From positions 3,904,001 to 3,968,000 of the forward strand of contig OY970325.1 in the NCBI GenBank assembly GCA_963717145.1: DNA of 64,000 nt, read 5' to 3'. The DNA is from an uncultured Armatimonadetes bacterium (lineage in GTDB: Bacteria; Armatimonadota; UBA5829; DTJY01). The notes below the pieces were generated by a model, which did not search any database, was not told the origin of the DNA, and saw only the letters and a list, made by a program, of their open reading frames with translations. The translations under genes and the position numbers were made by a program. Positions 17,364-47,578 of this stretch are shown here, in pieces. Numbering within the stretch: the stretch's first letter is position 1; each line of letters opens with the position of its first letter.

Positions 17364-17419
17364 TTGCATTCCGGGGCGCGCTGTGTTATTGTATGGCAAA
17401 ATCGTGAATAACTGCACAA
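17364..17419 (+). promoter_or_regulatory. rex promoter with downstream Rex-type operator
   Basis: TTGCAT-N17-TATTGT; TCGTGAATAACTGCACAA at 17402-17419 has 2 mismatches to TTGTGAAnnnnTTCACAA. Confidence 0.65.
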
Positions 17420-17446
17420 TACTGCCACACAAGGGAGAGTGAGACT

Positions 17447-18073
17447 ATGGGGGCTCGGCAGACCAAGGTACCGATTCCGACGCTGGAGCGACTGGCAACT
17501 TACCTTCGCTACCTCAATGACCTCGAAGCAACCGGAGTGGATACGATCTCATCCGCTGAGATGGAGGAAGCCACCGGCATTCATGCTGCCCAGTTTCGGA
17601 AGGATCTGTCGTATTTCGGGGAGTTCGGGAGACCGGGGATTGGATACAATGTCTACGACCTGCAAGCTCGTCTGGCGAAGATCCTGAAAGTGGAGAAAGA
17701 GCAGCCTGTGATCATGGTCGGCGCGGGCAACCTCGGATCGGCGCTGGTCGGGTTCCCCGCTCTGCGTCGCCACAACTTTCATATCGTCGCTGTGTTCGAC
17801 AACAATCGCAGCAAGATCGGCAAGCGGCTCTGGGACCTCGAAATACTGGATATCCGGAAGCTCGCAGAGGCAAACGCAAGTTTGGGAGCAAGCATTGCCA
17901 TAATAGCCGTTCCCGCCATTGCTGCTCAGACAGTCACGGACCAACTGGTGGATGCCGGTGTCAAGGTCATCCTGAATTTCGCGCCAACGACTATCCGCGT
18001 TCCTGAGCACGTCGTTGTACGTAACGTTTGCTTCATCCAGGAACTCGCCGTCCTTTCGTACCACCTCACATGA
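17447..18073 (+). CDS. rex: Redox-sensing transcriptional repressor Rex
   Basis: RLATYLRYL, RKDLSYFGEFGRPGIGY, GAGNLGSAL and ILNFAP motifs. Confidence 0.97.
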   Translation: MGARQTKVPIPTLERLATYLRYLNDLEATGVDTISSAEMEEATGIHAAQFRKDLSYFGEFGRPGIGYNVYDLQARLAKILKVEKEQPVIMVGAGNLGSALVGFPALRRHNFHIVAVFDNNRSKIGKRLWDLEILDIRKLAEANASLGASIAIIAVPAIAAQTVTDQLVDAGVKVILNFAPTTIRVPEHVVVRNVCFIQELAVLSYHLT

Positions 18074-26761: not shown

Positions 26762-28261
26762 GTAAGAGTTCACGATCATTGATAATCTGAGGAAGGTACC
26801 CCAGGATCGGCTGTCGAATGGTAGGTTGTGAACGATCTCGGCAACCTATCAAGAGAAGAACTGATCGGCATCGTCTTGGAGCAGCACCAGGCGATCCGAG
26901 AGCAGCATCAGGCCGTCCTGGAGTTGCGTGAAGGTGTAGACACCCTGACCGAACGCGTCCGAGCGCTTGAGAAGGAGAATGAAGAACTCCGGTCCAAGCT
27001 CGGTGGCGGCGGCAGGACGATACCTGCCTTTGTGAAGGCAAACCGGCCCGAGCGCAAGAAGAAGGATCGCAAGAAGCGGCAGAAGTCGTTTGCCCGCTTG
27101 AGGGAGACCCCCACGGAGATCGTGGAGCACGCGCTCGACACCTGTCCCGACTGCGGCAGGAAGCTCTCCGGCGGCACGATGCATCACAGCCGGCAGGTGA
27201 TCGAGATACCGGTGATGCCGGTCAGGATCATCGAGCACCTGGTGATCGGACGGTACTGCGGAGTCTGCCACAAGATACACGTGCCGAAGCTCGACCTCTC
27301 CGAAGAGGTGGTCGGGACACACCGGGTGGGCATCCGGCTGATGAGCCTGGTGAGCTATCTCCACACGGTCGGTAGAATGCCGGTCGAGCGTGTGCAGAAG
27401 CTTCTGGAATCACTCTACGGTCTGCATCTCGGGCGCGGAGAGATCACAAAGATACTACATACGGTAGCATCCATGGGGAAGTCGGAGGTAGAGAAGCTTC
27501 TTCATGCGGTGCGGGGAAGCCCTGCGGTGAACGCGGATGAGACCGGCTGGCGGGAAGACGGGAGGAACGGATACATCTGGAGCTTCTCGACGCCACGCGT
27601 GCGCTACTTCATCCGAGACAAGAGTCGGAGCGGAGAGGTCGCAAAGGATGTGCTGGGAGAGGACTACGGCGGTGTAGTCGTAAGCGACTTCTACTGCGGT
27701 TACAACGTGCTCTTGGGGCGGCATCAGCGGTGCTGGGTGCACTACCTGCGGGACTTGCGAACGCTCGTCGAGGCGAACCCTGACAAGAGAGGGGTAGCAG
27801 TCTGGGTCGGCAAGGTCAAGGCCGTTTACAGACGCGCGAAGAGATATTCGAACGAGGAGTCGAAGGCTCGGCACGAGCAGCGGATCGCATTCGAGGAAGA
27901 GTTGCTTCGACTCGCCAGACCATATGTGAAGCGGGATGTTCCGCAGAGGATACTCGCTGAGCGGATCGAGAGATTCCTGCCGGAGCTGTTTGTCTTCGTA
28001 GAATGTCCGGAAGTACCAAGCGAGAACAACGCGGCCGAGCGAGCGATCCGGCCTGCGGTAACGGCTCGCAAGATCAGCGGCGGCACACGGTCGGCCAAGG
28101 GATCTGAGACCCGCATGGCGCTGATGAGTCTATTCGGGACCTGGCACTTGCGTGGTGAAGATGCGATGGAGTCATGCCGGCGGATGCTCATGGGCGTTCC
28201 TCAGACACCCGCGACCGATCCAGCCTGACAAACTTCACTATCAACGATCGTGAACTCTTTC
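26762..28261 (+). mobile_element. IS66-family element, single-ORF ISBst12-like (1500 bp), distinct from the first
   Basis: IRs GTAAGAGTTCACGATCATTGATA and GAAAGAGTTCACGATCGTTGATA; 8-bp TSD TCCGCATG at 26754-61 and 28262-69. Confidence 0.95.
26828..28228 (+). CDS. IS66 transposase
   Basis: CPDCG, ADETGW, HQRCWVHY and ENNAAERAIR motifs. Confidence 0.95.
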   Translation: MNDLGNLSREELIGIVLEQHQAIREQHQAVLELREGVDTLTERVRALEKENEELRSKLGGGGRTIPAFVKANRPERKKKDRKKRQKSFARLRETPTEIVEHALDTCPDCGRKLSGGTMHHSRQVIEIPVMPVRIIEHLVIGRYCGVCHKIHVPKLDLSEEVVGTHRVGIRLMSLVSYLHTVGRMPVERVQKLLESLYGLHLGRGEITKILHTVASMGKSEVEKLLHAVRGSPAVNADETGWREDGRNGYIWSFSTPRVRYFIRDKSRSGEVAKDVLGEDYGGVVVSDFYCGYNVLLGRHQRCWVHYLRDLRTLVEANPDKRGVAVWVGKVKAVYRRAKRYSNEESKARHEQRIAFEEELLRLARPYVKRDVPQRILAERIERFLPELFVFVECPEVPSENNAAERAIRPAVTARKISGGTRSAKGSETRMALMSLFGTWHLRGEDAMESCRRMLMGVPQTPATDPA

Positions 28262-30685: not shown

Positions 30686-30826
30686 CCCCGTAAGAAGGGG
30701 GACCGGCCTCTGGGCCGAGGGGGTCTTGTCCTGCGAACCTCCCCCGGCCTGCTGGCCGGCCCCTCCTTCGTAAGGAGGGGCGCAGACGCAGACCACGAAA
30801 AAGAGGGCGAGGTTGCCCTCGCCCCA
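30686..30826. repeat. Intergenic palindromic repeat cluster and terminator-like hairpin
   Basis: CCCCTCCTTCGTAAGGAGGGG and GGGCGAGG-ttgc-CCTCGCCC hairpins between convergent genes. Confidence 0.55.
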
Positions 30827-30894: not shown

Positions 30895-32776
30895 CTAGAA
30901 GCCTGTCGACCAGGCGAGACGCCAGAGGTTGAACATGCCGTCGTTGTTCGGGTCGATCTCGTCATTCCAGTCCGACAGCGAATATTCGATGAGGACGCGC
31001 TCCCTTTCGGTCAGGTTGCGGGTGAACCCGATCGTCCATCGGTTGTCTCTCACCTCGACGGGATTCCAGACCCTCAGGAAGAGTCGGATCGCCCGGTACG
31101 AGCACGCCGACGTTCATCCTGCCCGTGGATTTCGACGTCAGGAATCGCCAGTACAACTGGGATTTCGGCGACGTCGCATAGTTCAGGCCGACCGAGAATT
31201 GCCTGTTCCGTGCATTATACGGAACGTCTGCGGTCGAGACAGGATCGAGAGCATGAGGAGCGAGTTCCCAGAGCGTGGTCGCATCGATCCGCGCAGCGGA
31301 AGCAAGAACATCGAGGGTCAGCTTGCCATTGATGCCATACCATGCTCCCAACATAGTATCGGTGAACTTGCTGTCGAGCCCCGCGTCATCCCGCTTCTCG
31401 TCATGCAGGCGGTGGTAGTCGCCGTAGAAGACAAGTCGGTCGTTGTATAGATACGTGGCATTCAAGCTCGCCTTTTTCCGACCGCCGGGAGAGCTCTTGA
31501 AGGCGGCATTGTCGATGTTCCAGTCCTCCATCTTGCCTGAGAGGCTCAGCTTCCAGTTCGGATTGTAGCGGAAACTGGCGCGCCAGATGTTCGAGGTAGT
31601 CGTCGCATTCATCAACTCGTCGAGGTCCGGGTCATCCGGGAAACCGTTTGCCAACGTCCGCTCGGTCTTCTTGCCCTCGTATCCGACGCGGATGAGAGCC
31701 TTACGTATCCCCGTATAGCCGGATTCAACCTCCACGGACCGTTCTCTTCGACTGAGCGCTATGTTCGTCGGCGGATCTCCTGGGGCATCAATCACCGGGC
31801 CCATGTGGTTGTCCAGCTCGTAGTCCCGGTATCTTCCGGTAAGCGTGAGCGCTCCAGTAGCCAGAAAAGTGAGGGCGGCATTGGTCGAGTTCAGATCGAC
31901 GCTCCTGCCATTTACGAGGCTCTCGGTCTTGTTCGTTCTCTCACGCTGGATATGCACGCCCGTGAAGTACAGACGGTCTGACAGACGGCTCCTCGCTCGA
32001 ATCACATTGGATGTGGTCTTGATGCTCGGGATTATTACCGTGCTCGGACGGTCTGCCGCAATCGACGACCGTCCTCCGTCCTCGAAGCTGTGATTCTCGT
32101 AGCTGTAGGTGACGGCGGTGCCGCTTCCCAGCCGCAAGTCGAGCCCCAGCGTTCCCTGATCGCTACTCCGATCGATCCCGAAGTCCACACTCTCCATTCG
32201 ACTCGGACCGGAGCCGCGGTAGTTGAACTGCATGACGCCATTCTCGGACTCCTGCCACCAGTTGGCCCTGTAGGCAATCCTTCCCGTGTTCGGGGTCAGC
32301 CGGAAGCCGATCTCATTCACTCGCCGGTTTATCTCGAGCGGGTTGCCCGGCGTAAGATCCACGACGAGCCCTCCCGTGATGCCCAGAGGCGACAGATACG
32401 GATCGACCCCGGGTATGCGCACGAGCCTGTGCAGCATGGAACTGGTCTTGGCGCTCAGGGAAAACTCATTCCGGACGCCCATCTTGAATGATATGTCCTC
32501 GTCACCGACTATCAGGTCCCGTGCATCGAGCCAGTACTGAAAGTCTCCACCGTAGCCGTATGAGTCGATCGATTCGATCCCCCAGAGGTCGAACCTTCGG
32601 CCGTCATACTCGCGCACTGTGTCCTGATTGCCGCTCTGGTCGTGGGTATACAGGCCGATTCCCACCTCAGTGCGCTCGTCCTGGCCTTTCAGCAGATCCG
32701 ACTGTCCGAGAGCGGGGACACATATGATCACTGCAACAAACAGCACTATCGCTATCGTTCTGCAACAAAAGTTCAT
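30895..32776 (-). CDS. mtrB: MtrB/PioB-like outer-membrane beta-barrel (one frameshift near 31070)
   Basis: Directly follows the decaheme gene; signal peptide; alternating beta-strand pattern; shifting frame near 31070 gives ...NLWRLAWSTGF*, a BAM-type terminal Phe. Confidence 0.75.
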
Positions 32777-32806
32777 CTGCTTTCCTCCTCTTCTCACTCC
32801 CATTCG

Positions 32807-33853
32807 CTACTCGAAGAGCGCCTCGTGGGTATCCGAACCGTGTATCTGCGTGTGGCAGTTCGTACACGTGGCGTAGCGCTGTGCGAATCTGCCGATATCT
32901 CCTCTCGGCGAGTGTGTTCCCGTGTGGCACTTCATGCACAGGAACGGCTCGTTCTGGAGTTGCAGCTTGTTGTTGACCGAGCCGTGCGGGTTGTGGCAAT
33001 TGGTGCATTCCTCGGTTACCGCGGGATGCTCGAACACGAACGGACCGACCTTCTCTGCATGGCATTGTCTGCACGTCTCGTCCACGTTCTCTTGTTTCAG
33101 CATGCCGTTTGGCCCGCCATGAGGGTTGTGGCAGTCCGTGCACTTAACCTTGCCCTCCGCGATCGGATGATGCGAAGGCATCCTGCTCTGGACTTCCTGC
33201 TGCTTGTGGCAGTCAAAGCAGACATACGGTTCGATGCTTCGTCGGTAAGCGGTTTCGGCCCCCTTGAGCTGCTTTCGAGCCTCCTCGAGTTCGGCCGTGA
33301 GTTCCTTGACCTTCTTGTTGGCCGCAAGCTTGTCTTCGCTGCCCGCGGGAGCGACGTTCGATCCCACATCCGTCTGCTTGATCGCTCGAGTGAGTCCTTG
33401 TACGGAGAGCTTGGCGTTTTCCACGTCGCTCAGCAGCTTCTTTTCGCCTTCGCTGTGCAGATCATGGCACTTGATGCAGCTCACCTTGGCTCGAGCATGG
33501 ACGCTCGTCTGCCACTGGGTGACATGCTCTCCGGAGTGGCACTTTAGGCAGGTATCCGCCAACTTGTTCGGTGGCAACTCCTGCGGCCTGATGATCTTCT
33601 TGATGTCGCCGCCGCCTTCGACATGCGCTCCACCCGGCCCGTGGCATGCCTCGCATCCGTTCTGCGAAGGCTCCTTGTTGAAGAGCATTCGTCTGTGAAC
33701 GGTGTGAGACCACGTCTTGACCGTGTCCGCGTGACACGTGGAGCATACCTCACTGCCAATGTACTTGGGCTCGTCCTGTGCTTGGCCCGTGTAGAACCAG
33801 ACCAATCCCAGAACCAGGCAGAACACAAGGGTAAATGCAAGTTTCTTGACCAT
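32807..33853 (-). CDS. mtrA: MtrA/DmsE-family decaheme cytochrome c
   Basis: Signal peptide; 10 CxxCH; CEACHGPG, SHHP...CTDCHNPHG, GPFVFEHP and CHTQIHGS motifs. Confidence 0.9.
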   Translation of the reverse strand: MVKKLAFTLVFCLVLGLVWFYTGQAQDEPKYIGSEVCSTCHADTVKTWSHTVHRRMLFNKEPSQNGCEACHGPGGAHVEGGGDIKKIIRPQELPPNKLADTCLKCHSGEHVTQWQTSVHARAKVSCIKCHDLHSEGEKKLLSDVENAKLSVQGLTRAIKQTDVGSNVAPAGSEDKLAANKKVKELTAELEEARKQLKGAETAYRRSIEPYVCFDCHKQQEVQSRMPSHHPIAEGKVKCTDCHNPHGGPNGMLKQENVDETCRQCHAEKVGPFVFEHPAVTEECTNCHNPHGSVNNKLQLQNEPFLCMKCHTGTHSPRGDIGRFAQRYATCTNCHTQIHGSDTHEALFE

Positions 33854-33968
33854 CGCCTGGCACACGCCTCCTTGATGTTGATTTTGCTTCGCGCTTTCGG
33901 TCACCATCCGGGCCGTCTCCCGAGGGAGCGCCTGCCCTTTGAGCGTTCTGACGGCGCGAGATACTACA

Positions 33969-33990
33969 TTTCGTGTTATTTTGAACGAAA
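33969..33990. promoter_or_regulatory. Palindromic operator-like site (Rex-like) upstream of mtrA
   Basis: TTTCGTGTTATTTTGAACGAAA, next to a minus-strand TAGTAT -10-like hexamer. Confidence 0.4.
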
Positions 33991-34092
33991 CAGCGGAGTG
34001 TTCCTTCCTGCGTGGAAAAAAAAGACGCCTGAACGAGGTTGATTGCCGATTCTCATGTTGTGAGAGCGATCTCCTGGCATAGGAATGCTGCT

Positions 34093-34139
34093 GCAATCAA
34101 GGTGGGACCGGCTTCGCCGGCCGCTCCCGCCTTGATTGC
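34093..34139. terminator. Hairpin after the 26-heme gene
   Basis: GCAATCAAGG...CCTTGATTGC with an internal GC stem. Confidence 0.5.
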
Positions 34140-34148
34140 GTGCGCGCT

Positions 34149-35939
34149 CTAAGGGTTCGGATGACACATGGCGCAGTACTCCTGCTTATGGCACTTGAAG
34201 CAGGGCGAACCCTGCGCCAGGCTCGCACCATGCTTCTTATGATCCATTACCCAATTTTCGGGGTGCGGCATCTCTGTTTTGTGGCAATTCATGCAGTTTT
34301 TGCTGTCATGGCAGTTCAGACAGCTCTTGTTGCCTGCTTTCGCGGTCTTGCCGTGTGCCTTCAGCCACTCGCCTTTATGAGAGGACGGCATCAGATTCGA
34401 GTGACACGCATCGCAGAAGCTCTTGGTATGGCAGGTCGTGCAAGTCGTCGATCGGGACTGGCCGCCATGATTCTTCATCCACGCAGGCGACGAGCTGTGG
34501 CTCGCAGGTTTCGTCCCCCGGTGGCAGGCCACACAGAAGCTCTCCTCGTGGCACTTCTTGCATGCCGCCCTGTTCTGTTTCGCCACCGGTCGGTGCGCCG
34601 TCTTCCAGTTCGACGGGTGAGGCATCGTCATGCCGTGACAACTGCTGCAGAAATCCCTGGTGTGACACGTGTTGCACAGCTTGCTGTTGATCGCCGCCTG
34701 CGCGGGATGCTGCTTTGTCCAGTTTGCGGCGTGCGAAGCCGGTTTCTGCGTCTTGTGGCACTTCATGCAGAATTCCGACTTGTGGCATGTCGTGCAGTTC
34801 GCGCTCGACTGCTGGGCGGGATGTCCGTGAGTCCGCAGCCAGGTGGCATTCGCGTGCGAAGCCGGGGTCTTACCCTGGTGACACCCGATGCAGAACTGCT
34901 CCTGGTGGCAATTCTTGCAGGAATCGGCCTTCTGTTTTGCCTGTCCGGGATGCATCTGCAGCCAGTTCTTCGGATGAGTCTGATAGCGCTGATGGCAATC
35001 CGAACAGAAGAGGCGCTCGTGGCACTGGTCGCATGTCCCGGGAGATCGGCGGAACTCCTGAGGGTGCTTGGACAGCCAGTCGAGTTCGTGAGCCCTCTTC
35101 ACTGAGTGGCAGTCTGTGCAGAAACTCTTGGCATGACAGACCTCGCAACTCTGGGGTTTCTTCCGGAACTCTGCCGGGTGAGAGTTCCGCCAACCCGGCG
35201 CGTGCGGGGTCGCCATTCGGTGGCAGTTCTTGCAGAAGTCCTCCTGGTGGCACCGCTTGCAGGAGTCTCGATCGTTCTTGACCTCCTGTTTGTGGCCCTC
35301 GACCCACTCGGGAGTGAACACGCTGGGTTGTCGCATGCCTAATGTTTCATGGCATAGCCCGCACGTATTGGGAGCCTTCTTGCCGTCGTGACACTTGAAG
35401 CAGGTGTCCATCTTCGGCGTATTCTTGGTGGCAGCGTTCGGGCCGTGGACTACGTTGTCGTGGCAGAATGTGCAGGAAATCCCGCGGTCCCAGTGCTTCT
35501 TGTGCGTAATCTTCAGTCCATGGTAGACGACCAGGTCTCGGGTTTCGGGATGGCATTTCTTGCAGTTTGCATCCGGGACATGCCCCTGGATGGCTCCCGG
35601 GTCAACGCCACCCTTCACGTGCTTATACACCTGGCGCATTGCCGAGAACTTGCTCTTCGCCATGTTCGTGAGGCCGGGCATGAGGTGGCATTCCTCACAC
35701 TGGACATCCTTATGCGAAGACTCACCCCATGTCGCATAGTGGACGTCCATTTCGTGGCAGGAGGAGCAGAAGATCGACCTGTTTGTGGCGGCTACTCCGC
35801 TGACCAGCGCGATGCCGAGAATCCCGAAGGCAATCAGGAGCATGCCCCAGCTTATGGTCCAGCGCACTATCGGTATAGTGATTCTGGTCTTCAGCAGGCG
35901 GATACAGGCCTCTCTGGAAACGAAACTAGGGGCTCTCAA
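34149..35939 (-). CDS. Membrane-anchored NapC/NirT-like multiheme cytochrome c, 26 CxxCH
   Basis: N-terminal TM then FCSSCHEM...W..SSH...CEECH (NapC-like); ten tandem diheme repeats. Confidence 0.9.
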   Translation of the reverse strand: MRAPSFVSREACIRLLKTRITIPIVRWTISWGMLLIAFGILGIALVSGVAATNRSIFCSSCHEMDVHYATWGESSHKDVQCEECHLMPGLTNMAKSKFSAMRQVYKHVKGGVDPGAIQGHVPDANCKKCHPETRDLVVYHGLKITHKKHWDRGISCTFCHDNVVHGPNAATKNTPKMDTCFKCHDGKKAPNTCGLCHETLGMRQPSVFTPEWVEGHKQEVKNDRDSCKRCHQEDFCKNCHRMATPHAPGWRNSHPAEFRKKPQSCEVCHAKSFCTDCHSVKRAHELDWLSKHPQEFRRSPGTCDQCHERLFCSDCHQRYQTHPKNWLQMHPGQAKQKADSCKNCHQEQFCIGCHQGKTPASHANATWLRTHGHPAQQSSANCTTCHKSEFCMKCHKTQKPASHAANWTKQHPAQAAINSKLCNTCHTRDFCSSCHGMTMPHPSNWKTAHRPVAKQNRAACKKCHEESFCVACHRGTKPASHSSSPAWMKNHGGQSRSTTCTTCHTKSFCDACHSNLMPSSHKGEWLKAHGKTAKAGNKSCLNCHDSKNCMNCHKTEMPHPENWVMDHKKHGASLAQGSPCFKCHKQEYCAMCHPNP

Positions 35940-36898
35940 CTCTTGTACCCCCCGTCGTCCGTCGCATCATGCTTCCCGCCGCCGTTGTTTCTGAGCTTCT
36001 CGCGCTCCGCTATGATCTTCTCGTATTCCAGCGGATGATGATGCATGATGTTCTCCTTGGATATCTTGCCGGTCAGCCACGTCCAACTCATGGGGAAGTT
36101 GTCCGGATTAAAATGCACGTTGTAGAAATGCCATATGATGATTGCCAATGTGGCGAGGAGCGCCTCATCGCTGTGAGCCTCATGAGCCATGTCCAGCGCA
36201 AACTTGGGCAGGAGCGCCATCGTCGTGTCCTGGAACCAGAGCATCAGCCCTGATGTGATCATGACGACCATTCCCCAGTATACTGCCCAATAATCGAATT
36301 TCTCAATGTAGCTGAACCTGCCGAACCTCGCTCCGATCTTCGAAAAGCCCAGAAAATACTTGACGTTTCTGTAGACGTCGGCAACATCCTTGAACTTCGG
36401 AAGCCACTCCATGATGTTGTGGCGTCCTTCCCTCATGGCTATGATGTAGAACACATGGAATGTGCCAACTGCCATGAGGCCGACCGCGCCGATCCTGTGG
36501 ATCAGGCCGCTCTGCGCGACGCCGCCGATAAGGCGGAAGAAAGCGCCCGCCCAGTCAGTGTTCGGGAATTTCAGAGGAATGCCCGTCACGATCAGTATGA
36601 TGCAACTTGTGAAGAGCGCCATGTGCTGCAATCGGAATACGATGCTGAACCGCTCGAATTCCTCTTCGTCGCCGAGCTTCGAGACTGCCGGAGCCTTCCG
36701 CCGGCGAGTCTTCTCTTTCGCGGCTACCTCGAGCCTGTCACGGAGTTCGCGCCGGAGCTGTTCCCGCACTTCATCTTTGGCCCGTGCCAGCGTTTCGGCA
36801 TCGAGTTTGGACCCAAGCTGCTCTGCAGCGGCATCCAACTCACTGTCTATGCTTTCATCGGAGATATGTTTATCGGTTATCGGTCTGTCTCCAGCCAT
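35936..36898 (-). CDS. Cytochrome b subunit (FdnI/CbcL-type)
   Basis: QH..., IHRIGA, YIEKFDYWAVYWG, AHSDEALLA and WHFYNVH motifs; charged N-terminal extension. Confidence 0.88.
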   Translation of the reverse strand: MAGDRPITDKHISDESIDSELDAAAEQLGSKLDAETLARAKDEVREQLRRELRDRLEVAAKEKTRRRKAPAVSKLGDEEEFERFSIVFRLQHMALFTSCIILIVTGIPLKFPNTDWAGAFFRLIGGVAQSGLIHRIGAVGLMAVGTFHVFYIIAMREGRHNIMEWLPKFKDVADVYRNVKYFLGFSKIGARFGRFSYIEKFDYWAVYWGMVVMITSGLMLWFQDTTMALLPKFALDMAHEAHSDEALLATLAIIIWHFYNVHFNPDNFPMSWTWLTGKISKENIMHHHPLEYEKIIAEREKLRNNGGGKHDATDDGGYKS

Positions 36899-36899
36899 G

Positions 36900-37634
36900 T
36901 TATCGTTCCGTTTCGATTAGCTCTCTGTCGTCGGCCTTCCGCTCATTGCCCACGATGCGCTCGTACTCCAGGGGATGATGCTCTTTCATCTCGTGTTCGG
37001 AGATCTCACCGGTGAGCCAAATCCTGCTCATCGGGAATACCTCCGGGTTGAGATGAACGTGATAGAAGTGCCAGATGATGATCGCGAGGAATGCGAGCAC
37101 GGCCTCGTAGCTGTGTACCACCAGGCCGATGTCCAGTGACCACTTGGGCAGCACCAGCATCGCTTGTTCCTCGAACCAGAGGATAAGGCCGGTGAGGATC
37201 ATGACCGCCGATCCCCACGCCAGCGCCAGATACTCGAACTTCTCGATGAAGTTGAAGCGATCGAACTTCGGTTTGTCCCGCTTCAGACCGAAGTAGTATC
37301 CGAGCATGTGGATCACGTCGAACAGGTCCTTCGGCTTCGGAATGAGTGCCATGAGTTCGCGGTGACCCCTGTTCGTGAACACGGTCCAACCAACGTGGTA
37401 AGTGCACACCAACATCAGGATGACGGCCGAGATGCGATGAAGCACCGATCTCGCCGTGAAGCCGCCCAGGAATCCTATCAGGTGATGCGCCCAGGCGGCG
37501 TCATCGTACCGGAGCGGCAAGCCGGTCAGCACCAGCAGGAAGAAGCTGATCATCATGAATATATGCTGCGTGCGCTGGCTGCGCGAAAGCCTCTCGAAAC
37601 GGCGCTCGCCCGTGAGAATGGATGAATCGGTCAT
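36900..37634 (-). CDS. Cytochrome b subunit (FdnI/CbcL-type)
   Basis: QHIF, LHRISA, FIEKFEYLALAWG, VHSYEAVLA and WHFYHVH motifs; TAATG coupling to the upstream gene. Confidence 0.88.
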   Translation of the reverse strand: MTDSSILTGERRFERLSRSQRTQHIFMMISFFLLVLTGLPLRYDDAAWAHHLIGFLGGFTARSVLHRISAVILMLVCTYHVGWTVFTNRGHRELMALIPKPKDLFDVIHMLGYYFGLKRDKPKFDRFNFIEKFEYLALAWGSAVMILTGLILWFEEQAMLVLPKWSLDIGLVVHSYEAVLAFLAIIIWHFYHVHLNPEVFPMSRIWLTGEISEHEMKEHHPLEYERIVGNERKADDRELIETER

Positions 37635-38932
37635 TACTTGCCATACCCCCTGCTGCCATTCCGGGAACGACGACGCCACCGCGAGATCAGATCCAGCGCG
37701 ATATAGGCGCAGAACGAGCCTATCAGCAGTATTATGAACCCGGTGTAGAAAATGCGCACCCAGTATACGCCCTTGTCCTTCTTGCTCGATGGGAGAACAT
37801 GCACCGACCCTTCAGCAAAGTTCTTACTGGCGCCGGGATGGCATACTCCGCAGGTCTTGGGCATGTTCGTCTTGTTGATCGATGACTTGGGGTCGCTCGC
37901 CGGCCTTATGTCGTGCGCTCCGTGACATGTCGCGCAGTTGGCGACGGTGATGTCGCCATACTTGTTGGCAACTCCGTGATAGCTCTCGATGTACGTACTC
38001 AGACGGTTGGCCGGCAACCCGTACTTGCGCTCGATTCTCATGTCCTCGTGGCACTTGGAGCAAGTGGCCACGACATGAGTCGGATAGACGGAGGAACGCT
38101 CCTCCGAAGGCTTGGCGATGGTATGCTCACCATGACAATCGGTGCAGGAGGGGGCATCCTTGATCCCGCTTCTCAGGGCCTGCCCGTGGATGCTTTCCTC
38201 GTAGGTCTTGTATATCTTCTGGTGGCATTTCCCGCAGGTCGCCGGTATGTGAGGCTTGCTGACGGTCGAGCCCTTCTCCTTCGCGGCCTCTATATTGTGG
38301 ATGCCATGGCAGTCGGTGCACGTCGCGGCAGCCAGTAGACCCTGCTTGTCGACTGCCTTGCCGTGAACGCTGTCCCGGTACAGCCGGATCGTCGCCGGAC
38401 CGGGAATATTGTGCCGCTCTGTCATGGCGGTATCGGAGTGGCACTTGCCACACGTGTGCGCGATTCTCGATCTGTATGTGCTGGACTTCGGATCGCTCGG
38501 CGCCTTGATGCCATGTGTGCCGTGACAGTCTTTGCAGTTGGGAGCGTCCTTGTCCATTCTCTTCACGGCCTGACCGTGTACGCTGTCCGCATATTCCGTC
38601 ATGGGACTCAGATTCGGCGCGCCGACCGTATTGTCTATCTTGTGACACCGGCTGCAATTCACGGGGTCCGCGTTCTGCTTGTGGGGAAAAGACTGGCCCG
38701 CGAGATCTGTGTGACAGTCCTCACATTTCCTGCCCGCATGCACCGATTGCTGGAGTTCGCTTGCTTCGACATGCAGGGACATCTGCTTGCCGCCTATGGT
38801 CTTGCTCAATCCCTTGGCACTGTGGCACATGAGGCACTTGCCGGAGTCCACCATGGTGGCCGGCGTGGCCGGAGATGCGAGCGCAATAGCGACAACCGCC
38901 ATCAAGCAGGATAGTATCGATCTTCTGAGCAT
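37634..38932 (-). CDS. CbcL-like multiheme cytochrome c, 11 CxxCH, C-terminal TM anchor
   Basis: Signal peptide; repeated Y..S(V/I)HG...CxDCHG.H.I; C-terminal TM and Arg-rich tail. Confidence 0.88.
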   Translation of the reverse strand: MLRRSILSCLMAVVAIALASPATPATMVDSGKCLMCHSAKGLSKTIGGKQMSLHVEASELQQSVHAGRKCEDCHTDLAGQSFPHKQNADPVNCSRCHKIDNTVGAPNLSPMTEYADSVHGQAVKRMDKDAPNCKDCHGTHGIKAPSDPKSSTYRSRIAHTCGKCHSDTAMTERHNIPGPATIRLYRDSVHGKAVDKQGLLAAATCTDCHGIHNIEAAKEKGSTVSKPHIPATCGKCHQKIYKTYEESIHGQALRSGIKDAPSCTDCHGEHTIAKPSEERSSVYPTHVVATCSKCHEDMRIERKYGLPANRLSTYIESYHGVANKYGDITVANCATCHGAHDIRPASDPKSSINKTNMPKTCGVCHPGASKNFAEGSVHVLPSSKKDKGVYWVRIFYTGFIILLIGSFCAYIALDLISRWRRRSRNGSRGYGK

Positions 38933-38959
38933 AGAGTGTTCCCCCTGAGACCTGTCGAG

Positions 38960-40027
38960 CTACCGTGAAGCCCTTCGCCGCCGGCGCTTTGCGTACAGAT
39001 CGAGCAGTATGTGACCGATCAGAGCCACCATCGTGCATATCGTCAGCCACTTGAACGCGGTGCTTACGTAGTATAGCACTGACTGTTCTCCGTGTGAGAT
39101 TATGACGTGTATCTTTCCTTTGGCAAAGTTCTCGTTTGACCCCGTATGGCACTTACCGCACGTCTTGGGCAAATTCGCCTTGCTGACACTCGACTTGGGA
39201 TCGCTGGACGGGCGTATGTTGTGCGCGCTGTGACAGCTTGCACAATTCGCCACGGCCGGATTTCCAAACTTGTTCGCCACACCGTGATAGCTCTCACGGT
39301 ATGTCGCGTATCGTTCCTTGGGAATTCCGTACTTCTTCTCGATAAGCAGGCTGTCATGGCACTTCGAGCAGGTCTCCGGTATGGTGGTCGCATATACGGA
39401 GGAAGCTGGATCCTTCGGCGACTGGATGGCGTGCTCTCCGTGGCAGGTCGTGCATACCGGAACGTCGGGGTTGCCATGCAACAGAGCTTGTCCGTGAATG
39501 CTCTCGCGGTAGTCGCTGTATATGTCGATATGGCATCGGCCGCACATCTTCGGAACCTCTGCCTTGTTGACGCGCGACTTCGGGTCCGACGGTTTCCTGA
39601 TGTCGTGTCTGCCATGGCAATCCTGGCAGGTCGGGGCGCTCGTATTGCCGGATGCAAGGGCGCGCTTGTGGATGCTTTCACGGTATTCGGCGGGTTTCTT
39701 CGGCATTTTGATGCCCTGGATCTTCTCCACGTAGTGGCACCGCCCGCAGTTCACCTTTTCGATGTGATCCAGGCCGTGAGGAATCCGTTTGATGTCGTTA
39801 TGGCAATCGGTGCAAGCGCGTTGGGAGTGGACCGTCTTGGCGAACTCCGCGCCGTCCACGTACAGCGAGATCGTTCTGCCGTCAGCCATGGTCTTCTTGA
39901 GCTTCGGATCGTCATGGCAGCCCAGACACACGCCGTTATCCCTGGATGACTCCAGGTTCACGGGTATCGATGCGGCAGACGCGCTCGGACCCGCAAGCCT
40001 GAACAGAAGTGCCAGGCAGGCGGTCAT
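38960..40027 (-). CDS. CbcL-like multiheme cytochrome c, 9 CxxCH, C-terminal TM anchor (start uncertain)
   Basis: Paralog of the adjacent gene; 9 CxxCH; C-terminal TM and RRRRR. Confidence 0.85.
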   Translation of the reverse strand: MTACLALLFRLAGPSASAASIPVNLESSRDNGVCLGCHDDPKLKKTMADGRTISLYVDGAEFAKTVHSQRACTDCHNDIKRIPHGLDHIEKVNCGRCHYVEKIQGIKMPKKPAEYRESIHKRALASGNTSAPTCQDCHGRHDIRKPSDPKSRVNKAEVPKMCGRCHIDIYSDYRESIHGQALLHGNPDVPVCTTCHGEHAIQSPKDPASSVYATTIPETCSKCHDSLLIEKKYGIPKERYATYRESYHGVANKFGNPAVANCASCHSAHNIRPSSDPKSSVSKANLPKTCGKCHTGSNENFAKGKIHVIISHGEQSVLYYVSTAFKWLTICTMVALIGHILLDLYAKRRRRRASR

Positions 40028-40166
40028 GTGGAATACTCTGACGTTTTGAACTATTGTACCTTTTTTCACTAATTTGCCCCGGACACTGTAGTATATCACA
40101 CAATGCCCTGATCTAGTCAAGAGGAAATTCGTAAAAACGGGTACGTGAGGAGGAGGAAATTCGGGG

Positions 40167-40298: not shown

Positions 40299-43253
40299 CT
40301 AGAAAGGCGGAGGGGGCGGTACGCCGCCGACCGGCTCGATATCGGTCGAGCGGATCACTCGGATGATCTTGTCGCCGCTCGTCTCGGAACCGGAGATGCC
40401 GGTGACCTCGAGGTATGTCGATCCGGGCGCCGTCCCGTACACCTTGACGCCCGTGCGCCCCGGATCCGTCGGAACGTTCGATCCGTCATCGAGATAGAAG
40501 AAGCCGGTCTCGGAGTACGTCACCCTGCCCCAGACCTTCACCCGCAGCCCGATGTTGTACGGACCTGATGCGCCGGTGACTGTGCAGTAGCCCGGGGTCG
40601 GCCCGATGCCGCCCAGATCCTCGATGACCAGTCCGAGCGGTCGGGGGATCGGGTTGCCCGTGCCCAACACTTGGGCCGTCGATGCATCGATCAGGGTCTC
40701 GCCGTTGATCTTTTTCAGCCGTCCGGTGAAAGTCACCATCGAACCCGCCGCGCAATCTTCGAGCGACTTCACGCCGATTCCGAACGTCCTGAGATACTGC
40801 ACGTAGAATCGGTCGCCGGGGAACCCGGCGGAGACCACCCGGTTCGGAATGGTAATGTACGCGCCCTCGTAGAGCCCTCTCAACTCACCAAGCCCGGTCA
40901 GGCTGAGCTGGTTGTCGATGTAGAGCCCCTTGGCGCGGGTGCTCTGGTAGGGCCGGTCATCGTAGCTAGCGTAGGCTGCGAGGATGCGCCCAGTTGGACC
41001 GGCGCACATCGTTCCGCCGATCTCCGAGGTCGAGCTGCTGAGCACGTTCACCCCGTTGATGCCGATGAGCTGGTTATTCGAGCTGATCCGCGTGAACTGC
41101 AGGTCGGACTGCATGGCGGCCCCGCATGCAGGGTCCGGGTTGGCGATCGTCCACGTGAGCACATAATCGAGGCCGTCCCAGAAGAAGTTCATGTTCTCCT
41201 GAACCGTAGCGTTTGCCGTCACCACAAGGGGGACGGGAGGCACACCGGGAGACGTACCGAACCATTTGTACACGGAGTCCCACCCGCCGTATGAATGAAT
41301 CTCCGATCCCCGTGAGATCAGCCGCAAGGTCTGGCCATTCCAGACCAGGTGGAACTCGGATGGGCTGGAGGCGTCGGTAAACTGCCGTGTAGTACCCAGT
41401 GCCCCAGCCTGGGTTATCGTAGTATAGGCTATGGCATTGGACGTGGTCGGATGCTTCCAGACCAGCACATAGTACTGCCCCGCCCAGCATGCGGCGATTT
41501 CGCCGCTATAGCCGCTGGATCCCATGTATACTCCAATATCCGAGACCAATGAGCAATCACGCCGGATAAGCGCCGCCCGGTATTTGCTGGTGCTGATCCT
41601 GTATGCGATCAGGCACTTCTCGCCGTCGGTCGTGATCGACCAGCCGGTCGGGGCGCCGTTCGTCGATACGACGATGCTGATCGGCGCCGGATCGAGCACC
41701 GTGCCTGACGGGGATATTCGCAGGGCTTTGAGAGTGGAGCCATCGACCCACACGAGGATGAAGTTCTCGCCGTTCCATATCGCGCGTGGACCGATGCCGG
41801 CGTCCGGGATGGGCATGATCTCGAATGGCGTGGATGCGATCGGCTGACCGGTGTTCGGATCGGCCAACGCGCCCTTCAGCGTCCGGCCGGCCTCGGTCCA
41901 TTCCTCCCAGCAGACGAGGAACCTCTGTCCGTTGTAAGCCGAGCACAATGGCTTGTGCTGGGACGCCGACTCCGCAAGACGGCGCTCCGTCCCGACGCTC
42001 GGCGTACCTTCGGCGACGTTGACGACGGCCTCGACGACCTGCGTGCCGAATCCGACCATGGTCGGGCCCCTGTCATCCGTCCAGCAGATCAGTACGGAGT
42101 CCTGGAGCGTCTCGTCGCTCATGAGCGCCACACTCGTCCTGGCTTGCCGTCCGTCTGCCGAGCAGACGGCGAACCCATTGCCATCGAGGGCCGTGCCTGC
42201 AGCGCCAAGCCTCCCGGCATAGATGTCGGCCCCGTCGGTTACCCTCCGGGTCCACGTCACTATGCAGTTGTGGCCGTTGTAGGCGATCTGAGGATCGAAC
42301 TGCCGCTCGGTTACTGAGCTGACGGTCCAGGGCTCTGTATCAAGGAGAGCGCCGTTCTGATCGAAGCGCATGCCCTTGATCTCGCGTCCGGCCGGTTCAC
42401 CGTCGGCCCACACGGCCTTGAAGTGATCGCCCGCCCAGCAGCAGTCGGGCGTGTCCTGGGAGGTGGTCCCGGCGTATACCGGCACGCCGGAGGTGTTGAC
42501 GACTCCCGTGTCTCCGACCAGTTCTGCTGCCCAGAGATCGTTCGATGTTCCGTTCGACACGGAGTTCCTGCACCAGACGATGAGGCTGCGGCCTGTGGGA
42601 GTCGATGCGACTGCGGGATTGGTCGCCGCAAAGCCGTCCCAGGTCGGGCTGCCGGGCGCAATGTTGATAGGCGCGCTGTCGAGGACCGTGCCGGTCGGGG
42701 TCAAGCGCACCGCGTATACGCCGAGCAAGCCTTGCGGGCCGTCGCCCGACCAGATGACGATCCAGTTTGCGCCGTCCCACGACACTCGGGGCGCGCACTC
42801 GCTGTGGTAGGATGAGATCACAATCGGCTGCTGGGACAGAATTGCCCCATCCGCCGAGAGTCGGATACCATAGATCAGGTTGCCCACAGCGCCGACGGCA
42901 TTCGCGTAGACGACAAAGTACTCCTGGCCGTTGAAGCAGATGTCGGGCCTGCCGAGGACGCACGCATGGTTCGTCAGCCGGATGTTCCCCGGATCGAGCA
43001 CCGTTCCAGTCGGGCCGATGTGAGCGGCGAACAGATCGGCTATGTTGCCGGCGTCTCTCATGTCGACCCAGACGGCCATGAATGAATCGGTCTCTCCCGC
43101 GACGACCGGATTGGTCTGGAGGCGGCCGGTGGACTGCTTCACGACCTCGGAGTCGAAGGAGGCCGGCTGCCCAACTGCGTATGCTCCGAAGCATGTGCCG
43201 CAGATCGACAGGATGAGGACAGCGACGATAGTGTATGTGCGTATGGTTTTCAT
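40299..43253 (-). CDS. Large secreted protein, about 14 beta-propeller-like repeats plus shared C-terminal domain
   Basis: AGGAG RBS and signal peptide; P.(V/I).W.G..(Y/F).V.W repeats; ends GGVPPPPPF. Confidence 0.85.
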   Translation of the reverse strand: MKTIRTYTIVAVLILSICGTCFGAYAVGQPASFDSEVVKQSTGRLQTNPVVAGETDSFMAVWVDMRDAGNIADLFAAHIGPTGTVLDPGNIRLTNHACVLGRPDICFNGQEYFVVYANAVGAVGNLIYGIRLSADGAILSQQPIVISSYHSECAPRVSWDGANWIVIWSGDGPQGLLGVYAVRLTPTGTVLDSAPINIAPGSPTWDGFAATNPAVASTPTGRSLIVWCRNSVSNGTSNDLWAAELVGDTGVVNTSGVPVYAGTTSQDTPDCCWAGDHFKAVWADGEPAGREIKGMRFDQNGALLDTEPWTVSSVTERQFDPQIAYNGHNCIVTWTRRVTDGADIYAGRLGAAGTALDGNGFAVCSADGRQARTSVALMSDETLQDSVLICWTDDRGPTMVGFGTQVVEAVVNVAEGTPSVGTERRLAESASQHKPLCSAYNGQRFLVCWEEWTEAGRTLKGALADPNTGQPIASTPFEIMPIPDAGIGPRAIWNGENFILVWVDGSTLKALRISPSGTVLDPAPISIVVSTNGAPTGWSITTDGEKCLIAYRISTSKYRAALIRRDCSLVSDIGVYMGSSGYSGEIAACWAGQYYVLVWKHPTTSNAIAYTTITQAGALGTTRQFTDASSPSEFHLVWNGQTLRLISRGSEIHSYGGWDSVYKWFGTSPGVPPVPLVVTANATVQENMNFFWDGLDYVLTWTIANPDPACGAAMQSDLQFTRISSNNQLIGINGVNVLSSSTSEIGGTMCAGPTGRILAAYASYDDRPYQSTRAKGLYIDNQLSLTGLGELRGLYEGAYITIPNRVVSAGFPGDRFYVQYLRTFGIGVKSLEDCAAGSMVTFTGRLKKINGETLIDASTAQVLGTGNPIPRPLGLVIEDLGGIGPTPGYCTVTGASGPYNIGLRVKVWGRVTYSETGFFYLDDGSNVPTDPGRTGVKVYGTAPGSTYLEVTGISGSETSGDKIIRVIRSTDIEPVGGVPPPPPF

Positions 43254-43267
43254 GTCCACTCTCCTCC

Positions 43268-43963
43268 TCAGTTGCTCACCGCAGGCTTGGGCGCTTCGAG
43301 CCGCAACCAGATCTGCCCCTGGTATGGTCCGTTGTCCCGCAGGTTGTACTGGTCGATTGTCATTGACGACACGTGCCCATCGATCCACAGCACATTGCCT
43401 GTGCTGTTGTGCCTGGTCGCAAAACGACGGCAGGTCGGATCGCCTGGGACGTATTCCACTGGAAGTGCGGCAAAGATGGTTCCTCCCGCACTTCCAGGCC
43501 ACTGCGTCTCGGCGATGCGAATCGTGGATGCCGGGTACCTGACCGACTTGAGTTGAACCACGACCGGAGTGCTACCCTCAGACATCCATCCACCGCACTT
43601 CATGTTCATCCCGTAGCTGCGCCCGGCGCTAAAGCTCTCCTGCCCGGACAGACCGGGTAACGGGCACTTGAATGGGTTGCCCTGACTGCTACTCGAATGG
43701 CCAATATACCGGTTTAGCAAGTCAGGCCACATCGTCCCACCCCATGCGAACGGCGCGCCGTAGGGTACCAGGACGTCATCGAAGTCGGCCTGGTACATGT
43801 CGGACGCCACTCCGAGGGCCTTCAGGTTCTCGGCGCAGGCGACCTGGCTGCTCAATGCGCGAGCATGCCTCAGCCCCACAGCAAGTATCGGCGCGAGCAC
43901 GAGAATGACGGCCACGATCGCCGCCAGGTCCTTCACTCCAAACCGCTGGTGTTTCCTTTTCAC
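43268..43963 (-). CDS. H-X9-DG pilin-like protein (degenerate prepilin N-terminus)
   Basis: N-terminal TM, C..NLK.LG.A..MY..D, SYGMN and RHNSTGNVLWIDGHV motifs. Confidence 0.85.
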   Translation of the reverse strand: MKRKHQRFGVKDLAAIVAVILVLAPILAVGLRHARALSSQVACAENLKALGVASDMYQADFDDVLVPYGAPFAWGGTMWPDLLNRYIGHSSSSQGNPFKCPLPGLSGQESFSAGRSYGMNMKCGGWMSEGSTPVVVQLKSVRYPASTIRIAETQWPGSAGGTIFAALPVEYVPGDPTCRRFATRHNSTGNVLWIDGHVSSMTIDQYNLRDNGPYQGQIWLRLEAPKPAVSN

Positions 43964-44044
43964 TGGCACTACCTCCCGTCGGTTTTCCAATGAAGTCACT
44001 AACTCATATGACACGCGAAATCGGCCCAGGTTGCACGGTGGGGT

Positions 44045-44113
44045 CCGTAGTGGCCGCGCCTCTGTGCCGGCCTTCCGACGTTACATGGCCGGCACAGAGG
44101 CGCGGCCACTACA
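44045..44113. repeat. GTAG-type REP doublet, copy 2
   Basis: Same arms as 40167-40240. Confidence 0.85.
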
Positions 44114-44122
44114 GAGCTTCCC

Positions 44123-44520
44123 CTAGATTGGCGGTGGCGGTGGGTCATCTCCTATCGGCTGGATATCCGTCGAGCGGATCACGCGGATGATCTTGTCGCC
44201 GCTCGTCTCCGTACCGGAGATGCCGGTGACCTCGACATATATATCTTCGGCGGCGGTCCCGTATACCTTGACGCCCATGCGCCCCGGATCTGTCGGAACG
44301 TTCGATCCGTCGTCGAGATAGAAGAAGCCGCTCTCGGCGTGCGTCACCCTGCCCCAGACCTTCACCCGCAGGCCGACGTTGTACAGGCCGAGCGCGCCAT
44401 CGACGCTGCTGAACGCCGAGTTCCGACCGACGCCGCCGAGTTTTCGGATCGCCATGCCCACCGGATCGGGATCGGGTTCATGAACTCACGATATCAGCGT
44501 CTGGCAGTTGATCTCCCGTT
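44123..44520 (-). pseudogene. Orphan C-terminal fragment of a third large secreted paralog
   Basis: YNVGLRVKVWGRVT...DDGSNVPTDPG...PPPPPI* is nearly identical to the end of 40299-43253; 5' part degraded, no signal peptide. Confidence 0.8.
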
Positions 44521-44537
44521 CTGATTCGCGGTCACGA

Positions 44538-47500: not shown

Positions 47501-47561
47501 ATGTGCCGCAGATGGATGAAAGAATAAGTGCAATGATAAGGCACAACCGCATGTTTCTCAT
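44538..47561 (-). CDS. Large secreted beta-propeller-repeat protein plus C-terminal domain (paralog of 40299-43253)
   Basis: AAGGAGG RBS; signal peptide; collinear repeats with the paralog. Confidence 0.85.
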   Translation of the reverse strand: MRNMRLCLIIALILSSICGTCYADYTLGQPVPLDTGAIVAGSTGWFQSNPVITSSGSIYLAVWVDMRDAGRGSDLYATRIAADGTVLDPLGIRLTTHASVTGKPDVCWNGQNFFVVYANNTGVVGTEILGLRVSPDGVIVDEAPAVICDTGTARKPCVSWDGENHVVVYEDTVENCIWVPCKLIDVIMARRVSAGGVPVGTEPTGVAAGSDPDVASSPDGDTLVVWSQPDVAGTSSDVYGAILDYAPGAQMVPIPISATANAEDMPDVCWAGGQFMVVWQDGDQSRSIRGRRIGTDGGLLDPAVLNISSVTEKQSDAQVAWNGTNSLVTWTRKGSAAGQLDIYAGRVYSDGTLLDGSGFPVCTADDRQIKPCVGSLGVNFLVCWMDSRSDVGPTVPNLGFQVRGRRIYSTGILAGEEFPLTQSAPQHKISCSAYNGRQFLVCFDEWRDGARNLYGELIDAYTGEPVTSEPFVISPLLIENPFPSAAWNGESFVVTWLGGADLYPGSGVIAHKKVMAARVTPTGTVLDSEGIIVYDGVTSPIYVQPAIASDGNRCLVVLRMGSNVNGKLLSRDGTVSSSIVIGASKSNAVHEGVAVCWTGQSYFIAWKQAYSTSGGVLVKGGIDYKTVNADGGGLSILKRITDETYPDYFRLACNGQNVLLAAYGPQIVTRRFSLAGNLLDTTPLIIPQSAGADCVNVAWNGADYILTWLSGKEDAASAQSWQDDMMAARVSYFNQLVDIVPISVTDTPLSELGGSMCAGPPSRAFLAYSNSDGPPYQSTRAKGLFLDAWLTVSSVGQIGQLYEGAHVNVPGEVVTALWPRYYRDSDGRPRLYDYFYIQEGRSFGIGVKSPRSEGSPVPGNAVSFSGRLRRLDGEVTIESSDVNIISTSNPLPDPIGMICRNLGGVAASPYFNTIENLSGLYNTGLRVRVIGKVTNVGGDHFFLDDGVGTMDNEWTPGVMVFADPQNLPAEGSFIKVTGISSRYMYGTVGVHRIIRATGWSAIDSAPE

Positions 47562-47578
47562 GTCGATCCTCCTTTCGC

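Follow-up and report, generated by a model that had tools for sequence, protein, structure and literature searches.

By what route, if any, could a bacterium of the little-studied phylum Armatimonadota carry electrons from its quinone pool through the whole envelope? This question is raised by a 64,000-nucleotide stretch of DNA (here called the window; G000:C1:3904001–3968000) from an uncultured Armatimonadetes bacterium whose genome (G000) is a single contig of 5.37 Mb and 98% complete. The assignment to Armatimonadota agrees with the names of close homologs; of 115 listed, 5 carry that name, one of them full-length with 59% identity. Seven genes of the window, g1 to g7, share the minus strand. 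The initial annotation had described them as co-oriented, in the order two multiheme cytochromes c, two cytochromes b, a 26-heme NapC-like protein, a decaheme MtrA-like protein and a β-barrel, with 56 c-heme motifs; a recount of the CxxCH motifs per gene gives 9 + 11 + 0 + 0 + 26 + 10 + 0 = 56 and leaves order and number unchanged. As only 19 of the 46,177 six-frame open reading frames (ORFs) of the genome carry at least three such motifs and four of these fall in the cluster, clustering by chance is excluded. The cluster is genuine and conserved, belongs as a variant to a known type of cross-envelope conduit, and we lean towards the view that it serves as an anaerobic respiratory exit for electrons. 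It comprises two modules, A (g1–g5) and B (g6 and g7), and is not one tight operon, because g5 and g6 are parted by 295 bp of spacer (33854..34148) in which an inverted repeat lies. Thus the earlier proposal of a single locus leading from the quinone pool by way of the periplasm to the surface is right in that all three envelope layers are represented, but the locus consists of two modules which often lie apart in relatives.

We suggest that menaquinol would be oxidised by two paralogous CbcL-like units (g1 with g4, and g2 with g3), each made of a four-helix cytochrome b and a separate multiheme cytochrome c, the C-terminal helix of the c subunit completing the membrane domain of the unit. The electrons would be passed to the membrane-anchored g5 and across the periplasm, either directly or via small soluble cytochromes, would move into g6, the decaheme that sits in the porin g7 (as modelled on a relative), and might leave to Fe(III) or Mn(IV) oxides, humics or partner cells, while Rex would probably lift repression as NADH builds up. 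Such a system suggests that little-studied anaerobic Armatimonadota respire on solids outside the cell.

The outer step is the task proposed for module B. The g6 gene (32807..33853) encodes a 348-aa decaheme protein of the DmsE/MtrA family, which with its ten CxxCH motifs scores 243 bits against the TIGR03508 model (cut-off 192) and matches MtrA with an E value of 7e-40, so that its earlier designation as MtrA-like is borne out. Between hemes 4 and 5 it carries a lineage-specific insert of ∼64 aa that is found in all ten decahemes of the class that were aligned. The g7 gene (30895..32776) encodes an outer-membrane barrel of the MtrB fold. Sequence profiles divide on this barrel: it narrowly passes PF11854 (26.2, cut-off 23), falls far short of TIGR03509 (18.9, cut-off 240) and scores better on the model of Geobacter GSU2204 than on TIGR03509, yet below the cut-off of that model, and two of three intact barrels scanned from family relatives have no Pfam match. 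The fold was assigned with the 61% identical ortholog of the relative G006. Its model (pLDDT 71) has 26 strand elements, and MtrB is described as 26-stranded (PMC12133095). The best Foldseek match of the model is MtrB (6R2Q chain B, E 3e-15, next match 5.9e-7), and VIA-align likewise places MtrB first (Z 19.4, rmsd 10.9, 532 aligned, next Z 16.5). When the barrel and the decaheme of G006 were folded together the score was 0.90, the best of three controls having 0.00; the runs share at least 84% of the contacts, the partner pLDDT is at least 76, and the contacts fall on alternating residues of many strands. Of 157 solved complexes 116 attain the mark used for such co-folds, and of 215 mismatched pairs 2 do. 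Thus the relative's barrel is predicted to be a large porin that houses the decaheme, as the conduit proposed in the initial annotation would demand; the co-fold is a modelled likeness to the solved MtrAB complex, and not binding of the window copy.

Compared with Shewanella MtrAB (PDB 6R2Q), MtoAB and PioAB, module B is alike in the decaheme family, in the 26-strand barrel fold (of the relative) and in the order of decaheme and porin gene. It differs in the decaheme insert, in a barrel with 14% identity to MtrB, in the decaheme–porin fusions of the phylum and in that no MtrC was found. There is no MtrC-family gene adjoining g6 and g7 in the cluster, which agrees with the lack of a surface cytochrome remarked on before, and the cluster was for this reason not filed as MtrCAB. 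Four loci contain single genes of ∼1000 aa in which a DmsE-type decaheme is fused to the porin (L112:792-3890, L115:1323-4328, L119:16850-19777 and L120:901-4008); these fused genes lie beside ResB, a CbcL-like unit and a 28-heme wire. At L114:4405-6363, L116:13377-14966 and L146:6293-7366 multiheme genes (6–9 motifs), two of them with lipobox-like starts, directly follow the porin gene in other families of the phylum and are candidate surface partners.

As assembled, the porin gene is broken. The barrel frame starting at the ATG at 32776 is lost at ∼31069 by an extra base and stops at 30962 after a non-homologous tail, and the C-terminus ending in Phe (stop at 30895) is encoded in a different frame from the barrel body. 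The barrel ending in Phe of the initial annotation had been read across this break without remark and cannot be upheld; g7 as assembled has no intact frame that ends in an aromatic residue. When intact barrels of relatives are mapped to the locus, each falls into two frames that a single surplus base separates, that of G006 with residues 41–622 and 623–679 and that of locus L163 (72% identical, 626 aa) with residues 1–569 and 570–626. The shift moves the last 57 residues out of frame, that is three predicted strands of the G006 model and the terminal Phe. In the public protein set g7 is a frameshifted product of 604 aa and a singleton without an intact 90% relative there. A metagenome scan with the barrel yielded no confirmed relative, and a scan with the repeat and the decaheme yielded 21 loci, one of them close (L163). 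For a survey of split genes, which replaced a smaller first one that had found the barrel and one other locus split, 482 proteins of relatives were mapped to the genome, and filtering left 82 distinct loci (99.8 kb). Eight of these, the barrel included, are split (7 of the 81 others), and none has a spanning ORF in the genome; ResB, acetyl-CoA synthase, CooS and Fhs also look split. The apparent rate is about one frameshift per 12–14 kb, at which by simple arithmetic a 9.1-kb cluster has a ∼50% chance of one break. Because the barrels of relatives are intact and 7 of 81 other loci are split as well, the extra base is quite likely an assembly error, and other findings of broken genes from this assembly call for caution.

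The inner membrane step would fall to g1–g4. The exported 9-heme cytochrome g1 (38960..40027, 355 aa) has a C-terminal membrane helix with a His and is the c-half of a split CbcL-like protein, cognate to g4; the exported 11-heme cytochrome g2 (37634..38932, 432 aa) has a C-terminal membrane helix with Tyr replacing this His and is cognate to g3. Both cytochromes b announced by the initial annotation are PF01292 proteins of the FdnI/HydC type: g3 (36900..37634, 244 aa) starts at an ATG overlapping the g2 stop and has His residues in helices 1, 2 (two) and 4, and g4 (35936..36898, 320 aa), whose stop overlaps the start of g5, is 45–46% identical to g3. CbcL is described as a multiheme cytochrome c and a cytochrome b in one protein (PMC9129911; bioRxiv 2021.04.15.440034). 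Here the four genes are separate and not the single polypeptides of CbcL, MtoC and MtrH; fused c and b halves occur in 13 of 40 loci. The linker helix of the c subunit comes in two types, with His as in g1 or with Tyr or another residue as in g2. The His type is paired with a g4-like b subunit in 6/6 single-pair loci and the other type with a g3-like subunit in 16/16 (two of these 16 by one-point margins), together all 22 single-pair loci in which the helix could be read, with 9 loci outside the count. Since the helix type tracks the type of the b subunit across these loci, the order of the pairs is nested, g1[g2 g3]g4. Both pairs co-occur in G032, G037, G296 and G284. Taken together g1 and g4 fit the five-His pattern given for CbcL, and g2 and g3 lack the first His; the two pairs may cover different redox ranges.

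There is no named CbcL among the best 120 of the 2130 homologs listed, nor among the PDB sequences, and the likeness, including the nine hemes of g1, is one of architecture and His pattern (bioRxiv 2021.04.15.440034). The closest published arrangement consists of CbcL, MtoC or MtrH genes beside mtrAB or mtoAB, as in Rhodoferax ferrireducens, Dechloromonas aromatica RCB and Gallionella ES-2, with the same combination of a c domain with an FdnI-type b domain and the same clustering with decaheme and porin; mtrH or mtoC clustered with mtrAB or mtoAB is reported for about ten species, and the phylum table of that report has no row named Armatimonadetes (PMC6295460). In contrast, the c and b genes of the window are split and duplicated in nested order, the second pair has Tyr for the linker His, and a long wire is coupled to them. 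Geobacter CbcBA resembles the pairs in that its c subunit is a protein of its own, anchored by a C-terminal helix which can carry a His, and in its four-helix cytochrome b. According to its description CbcB has three own His, the fourth ligand coming from the helix of the c subunit, and CbcBA 7 hemes, whereas g3 and g4 each have at least four candidate His and the c subunits 9 and 11 hemes, and the pairs were for these reasons not filed as CbcBA. The best PDB match of the c-domain profile is 28PB chain A (E 7e-14), which is possibly CbcA, as a review cites CbcA as '2BPB'.

Between the two membranes we place g5 (34149..35939), a candidate periplasmic wire with a membrane helix (residues 31–53), an NrfH-like head, a c7-like segment and ten two-heme repeats. 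The repeat unit has 38–41 aa of the form H-x-W-x-H...CxxCH-x4-CxxCH, and there are 29 His outside the motifs for the 26 hemes. Among the top 66 homologs, which have 18–32 motifs, the first heme motif is CxxCHxM in all 66 and a conserved Lys is present in 65. The head folds like NrfH (Z 7.3, rmsd 3.8, 131 aligned), although g5 scores 45.7 on TIGR03153 against a cut-off of 134. The position aligned to the Asp of NrfH, which we take to be a quinol-site residue, is Gln in g5, and Gln in 29, Leu in 19 and Glu in 8 of the 66 homologs; an extra His follows one turn later in 63 of 66. Foldseek with the g5 model gave no match at E ≤0.001 among 35 rows, and in a wide fold search, which used mainly residues 1–56 and barely covered the repeat fold, only NrfH came above Z 5. 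For the two-heme repeat the PDB searches run gave neither a sequence nor a fold match, the fold search again resting mainly on residues 1–56.

The same gene slot is occupied in G001, G006, G004, G009 and G007 by a headless version with 10–14 hemes (10 in G006, 14 in G001) and a lipobox-like start. In 26 of 29 loci with both genes the wire comes immediately after cytochrome b, in 17 of them with a 4-nt overlap. From the sequences g5 would thus be an anchor with a wire, fed by the CbcL-like units. The protein is mainly a putative repeat wire. Because the NapC head lacks the NrfH Asp and is swapped for a lipoprotein anchor in close relatives, g5 is probably not a quinol oxidase of the CymA type; the NapC-like label given before holds for the head. 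Assignment as a plain CymA or ImcH was rejected on the same grounds, the acidic quinol-site residue being absent and a lipid anchor standing in place of the head in relatives. With NrfH, CymA and ImcH of the NapC/NirT family g5 shares the membrane helix, the CxxCHxM motif, the Lys and the NrfH-like head fold; it differs in the replaced Asp, in the extra His, in 20 further hemes in repeats and in the exchange of the head for a lipid anchor. At L119:6863-8986, L137:1148-3478, L139:1013-3112 and L147:6196-8403 these two-heme repeats are found, together with a monoheme domain, in one protein with a cytochrome b6/bc subunit (13–17 motifs).

For GSU1996 12 hemes extend over 12 nm, that is ∼1 nm per heme (reference cited in PMC13591261); at this spacing 26 hemes could span the periplasm if they were arranged linearly. 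Crossing of the periplasm is described as solved only for shuttle-based systems, for example, Geobacter PpcA (PMC13591261). A soluble 6–7-heme cytochrome recurs in such clusters and lies beside ccsA in this genome, and a soluble shuttle instead of a fixed wire is possible. The bolder idea, that a fixed heme wire of adjustable length (10–32 hemes; NapC, lipid or cytochrome b anchors) under control of Rex and NADH joins paired quinol oxidases straight to the porin–cytochrome without a diffusing shuttle, is tentative and in our opinion rather doubtful. It is directly testable, as the repeat protein offers a natural length series with different anchors. If true, it would turn the phylum into a neglected group whose members respire with minerals or partner cells. 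A similar arrangement has been proposed for the PCC3 clusters, which have a porin, a b-heme protein of the inner membrane and a repeat-rich cytochrome of ∼21 hemes in the periplasm that is proposed to reach across it (PMC5566968). Compared by description, the porin of PCC3 is not of the Mtr type, and PCC3 includes a large cytochrome outside the cell and a five-helix ferric-reductase-like protein with two HX13H motifs, whereas the window has an Mtr-type pair and an anchored wire. Filing as PCC3 was rejected, since the cluster has no gene for a giant extracellular cytochrome and its membrane proteins are PF01292.

How widely the parts occur was counted in related genomes, in which kin are not independent. 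A decaheme over the cut-off is found in 14 of 53 class and 54 of 401 phylum genomes, and a wire match in 18 of 53 and 88 of 401. The wire is present in 12 of the 14 decaheme genomes of the class, the two exceptions being 60–68% complete, and in 45 of the 54 of the phylum. Decaheme and wire share a locus in 12 of 45 loci scored, many loci being cut by contig ends. The linkage of the modules recurs in distant families with differing gene orders, and a gap of only ∼20 bp parts the wire gene from the decaheme gene in G006. With regard to conserved synteny, therefore, the parts recur across the phylum and are often linked or fused, but the modules are unlinked in several relatives. With decahemes in 54 of 401 genomes and with most of the porins falling short of the MtrB HMM, marker surveys appear to count too few electroactive Armatimonadota in sediments and reactors that are anoxic.

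Control by Rex is probable on sequence grounds. With a matrix trained on 13 palindromes of the genome outside cytochrome clusters, a score at or above the 95th percentile was reached by 16 of 36 leaders of multiheme genes and by 16 of 150 other leaders, and several of the latter are divergent leaders shared with cytochrome or rex genes. The degenerate palindrome before g1 (40054..40071, minus strand, 27–44 bp 5′ of the gene) scores 7.3, about the 95th percentile of 1451 leaders, and is borderline, but it lies at the place of a strong site in G001. The probable regulator is encoded on the plus strand outside the cluster (17402..18073; rex gene 17447–18073, palindrome 17402–17419). A second rex paralog is found at G000:C1:3713613-3714615, and both rex genes are preceded by Rex-type palindromes. 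According to PMC7306483 NADH releases Rex, and in Calderihabitans multiheme genes have Rex motifs in front of them. A perfect Rex site at 121627 lies ∼1 kb from a FeFe-hydrogenase match.

The rest of the genome is compatible with a working conduit. Type II cytochrome c maturation is encoded outside the window by two CcsB-family genes over the cut-off and two ResB loci, so that the lack of maturation genes in the window does not refute the conduit; BamA and a menaquinone gene of the futalosine pathway are present. The only member of the heme-copper family is qNor-like, bd oxidase and RuBisCO were not found in the genome, and none of the three molybdopterin proteins scanned reached the cut-off for NarG or NapA. 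An O2 reductase was found in none of 11 genomes of the family. Four decaheme–porin relatives of the same family (95–100% complete) gave no match to heme-copper oxidase, bd oxidase or acetyl-CoA synthase, and aerobic Fe(II) oxidation or autotrophic uptake is for this reason disfavoured as the general role. Hydrogenases, formate dehydrogenase and a Wood–Ljungdahl cluster are encoded in the genome, the latter at L162 (G000:C1:3212001-3232000). Acetyl-CoA synthase matches occur in 13 of 53 class genomes, often as open frames of 1100–1250 aa; of the 14 class genomes that have a decaheme, just two (G000 and G038) gave such a match. If the conduit works, export of electrons is the probable direction because of the missing O2 reductase and the Rex-type operators; the direction, left undecided by the initial annotation, thus leans to export, with the Wood–Ljungdahl genes leaving room for uptake.

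Nevertheless, other explanations have to be weighed. The same hardware might run inwards in the manner of MtoAB and MtoC, with electrons donated by a partner cell, reduced humics, Fe(II) or Fe(0) passing to menaquinone and on to NO reduction or Wood–Ljungdahl CO2 fixation. FdnI/HydC-type cytochromes b natively reduce quinone, which fits inward flow, as do the qNor and Wood–Ljungdahl genes. No MtrC (TIGR03507) was found in any of the 53 class genomes, in a search made without a positive control; porin–cytochrome pairs without MtrC are described as typical of oxidisers (PMC5566968), and the Armatimonadota MtoAB of PMC9671151 was interpreted there as possibly serving to oxidise Fe(II). However, the rarity of acetyl-CoA synthase among decaheme genomes, the absence of an O2 reductase from the 11 family genomes and Rex-type operators, which imply induction under electron excess (PMC7306483), speak against uptake, and we regard it as improbable. 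The missing MtrC could also mean that the repeat cytochrome, at least in its lipoprotein form, is itself exposed at the surface as a stand-in; the G001 and G006 versions have the lipobox-like signal and lie directly before the decaheme gene. This is very improbable in our opinion, as the form in the window has an NrfH-like inner-membrane anchor, both forms occupy the same slot right after cytochrome b, and there are fusions of the repeat with cytochrome b6/bc subunits.

Another explanation is that the modules are functionally separate, g1–g5 linking the quinone pool to periplasmic partners (a TAT-exported NiFe hydrogenase, an octaheme protein or other conduits) or storing electrons, and that their proximity to g6 and g7 merely reflects the clustering of heme genes. 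The 295-bp spacer, the tendency of heme and maturation genes to cluster at these loci and a periplasmic NiFe hydrogenase locus that shows no cytochrome b gene would fit, and so would the class genomes that have the wire without an over-cut-off decaheme (6 of 18). That only incomplete genomes break the rule of decaheme with wire, and that linkage recurs in distant families in different orders, down to the short gap in G006, makes a functional separation improbable as well. Finally, g7 might be a true pseudogene, the outer step being dead in this strain and the system working in relatives: the insertion takes away three predicted strands and the terminal Phe, and an IS66 transposase lies 2.7 kb from g7. 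On the other side stand the other split loci of this genome, the about even chance of a break in any such cluster, the six other genes, which are intact, and the intact 626-aa barrel of L163, the closest relative of the same layout; we therefore consider a pseudogene unlikely.

Turning back to the respiratory exit, several observations weigh against it. The porin is frameshifted as it stands, and the extra base lies outside any homopolymer. The g5 model has a pTM of 0.42 and does not show that the wire is linear. The Rex sites of the window are weak, and the one before g6 (in the spacer, score 4.4) is not above background. Five of the six class genomes with a wire and without an over-cut-off decaheme are at least 97% complete, and the modules lie on different contigs in G032, G037, G009 and G007. 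With respect to direction, the lack of MtrC and its association with oxidisers have been mentioned, the Wood–Ljungdahl cluster is a possible sink for incoming electrons, a published tree places an Armatimonadota decaheme nearer to PioA and MtoA (PMC9671151), and CbcL and MtoC sequences are described as carrying no mark of direction (PMC6295460). OmcS-like genes, dealt with below, occur in only 4 of 53 class genomes.

Much of this has precedents. The initial annotation knew of no described extracellular electron transfer in the lineage; this has to be corrected, as MtoAB-like genes, multiheme cytochromes and iron redox potential are reported for Armatimonadota metagenome-assembled genomes (PMC9671151), with looser mentions in PMC11788075 and PMC13055281. 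Likewise, clusters of CbcL-type and MtrAB genes are published (PMC6295460); a prior description of this cluster, of the repeat or of the fusion was not found in the literature searched, mostly open papers, and Table S6 and Fig. S7 of PMC9671151 and Table S2 of PMC6295460 may list members. The parts of PMC6137239 that were available hold no relevant statement, and 'Armatimonad' is absent from the main text of PMC8805035, PMC10654088, PMC7399161 and PMC11475568 and from three supplements of the last. New are the repeat wire, variable in length (10–32 hemes) and held by exchangeable anchors, the split oxidoreductases that occur as two pairs, and the spread through the phylum, and in addition the decaheme insert, the decaheme–porin fusions and the probable control by Rex.

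In the gene boundaries given here the ORF-finder starts at 40258, 37679, 34096 and 32803 were dropped in favour of shorter ones, which match signal peptides and relatives; in the case of g1, g6 and g7 they also match the public gene calls. In the g1 leader a promoter-like −35/extended −10 element (40090..40120, minus strand) may be present; it resembles the leader of the G001 ortholog and is absent from the consensus scan, which found 7 sigma-70 sites (3.1 expected) and none at the g1 leader. A sequence scan placed a terminator-like hairpin with a T tract (30804..30825, minus strand) 3′ of the barrel gene.

Further redox genes lie elsewhere in the genomes. The TAT-exported NiFe hydrogenase is located at L157:8538-11129, with no cytochrome b gene seen in the locus. 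Although no O2 reductase was found in the genome, it encodes at L035:7875-11078, L038 and L036:5453-6763 a Rieske/cytochrome b complex that includes a 9-heme c subunit, an operon like that of alternative complex III, and an octaheme protein. At a distance of 1.1 Mb from the cluster, L034 (G000:C1:5036001-5056000) encodes ResB, 4-heme, 16-heme and NHL proteins, four OmcS-like hexahemes, a 9-heme protein and a possible barrel; it has strong Rex-type sites, and similar clusters are found in G026, G032 and G037. A PDB search with a single hexaheme sequence gave no match, whereas a profile of 10 rows matches OmcS (6EF8, E 2e-18); no paper with both 'Armatimonad' and 'OmcS' was found in the literature searched. 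Within the window, upstream of g1 (40299–47699), two paralogous exported proteins of ∼1050 aa without Pfam or NCBIfam match flank a prepilin-like gene. The IS66 transposase at 26828–28228 lies between dUTPase-like and TPR genes; G006 and G001 show no such insertion at the corresponding position.

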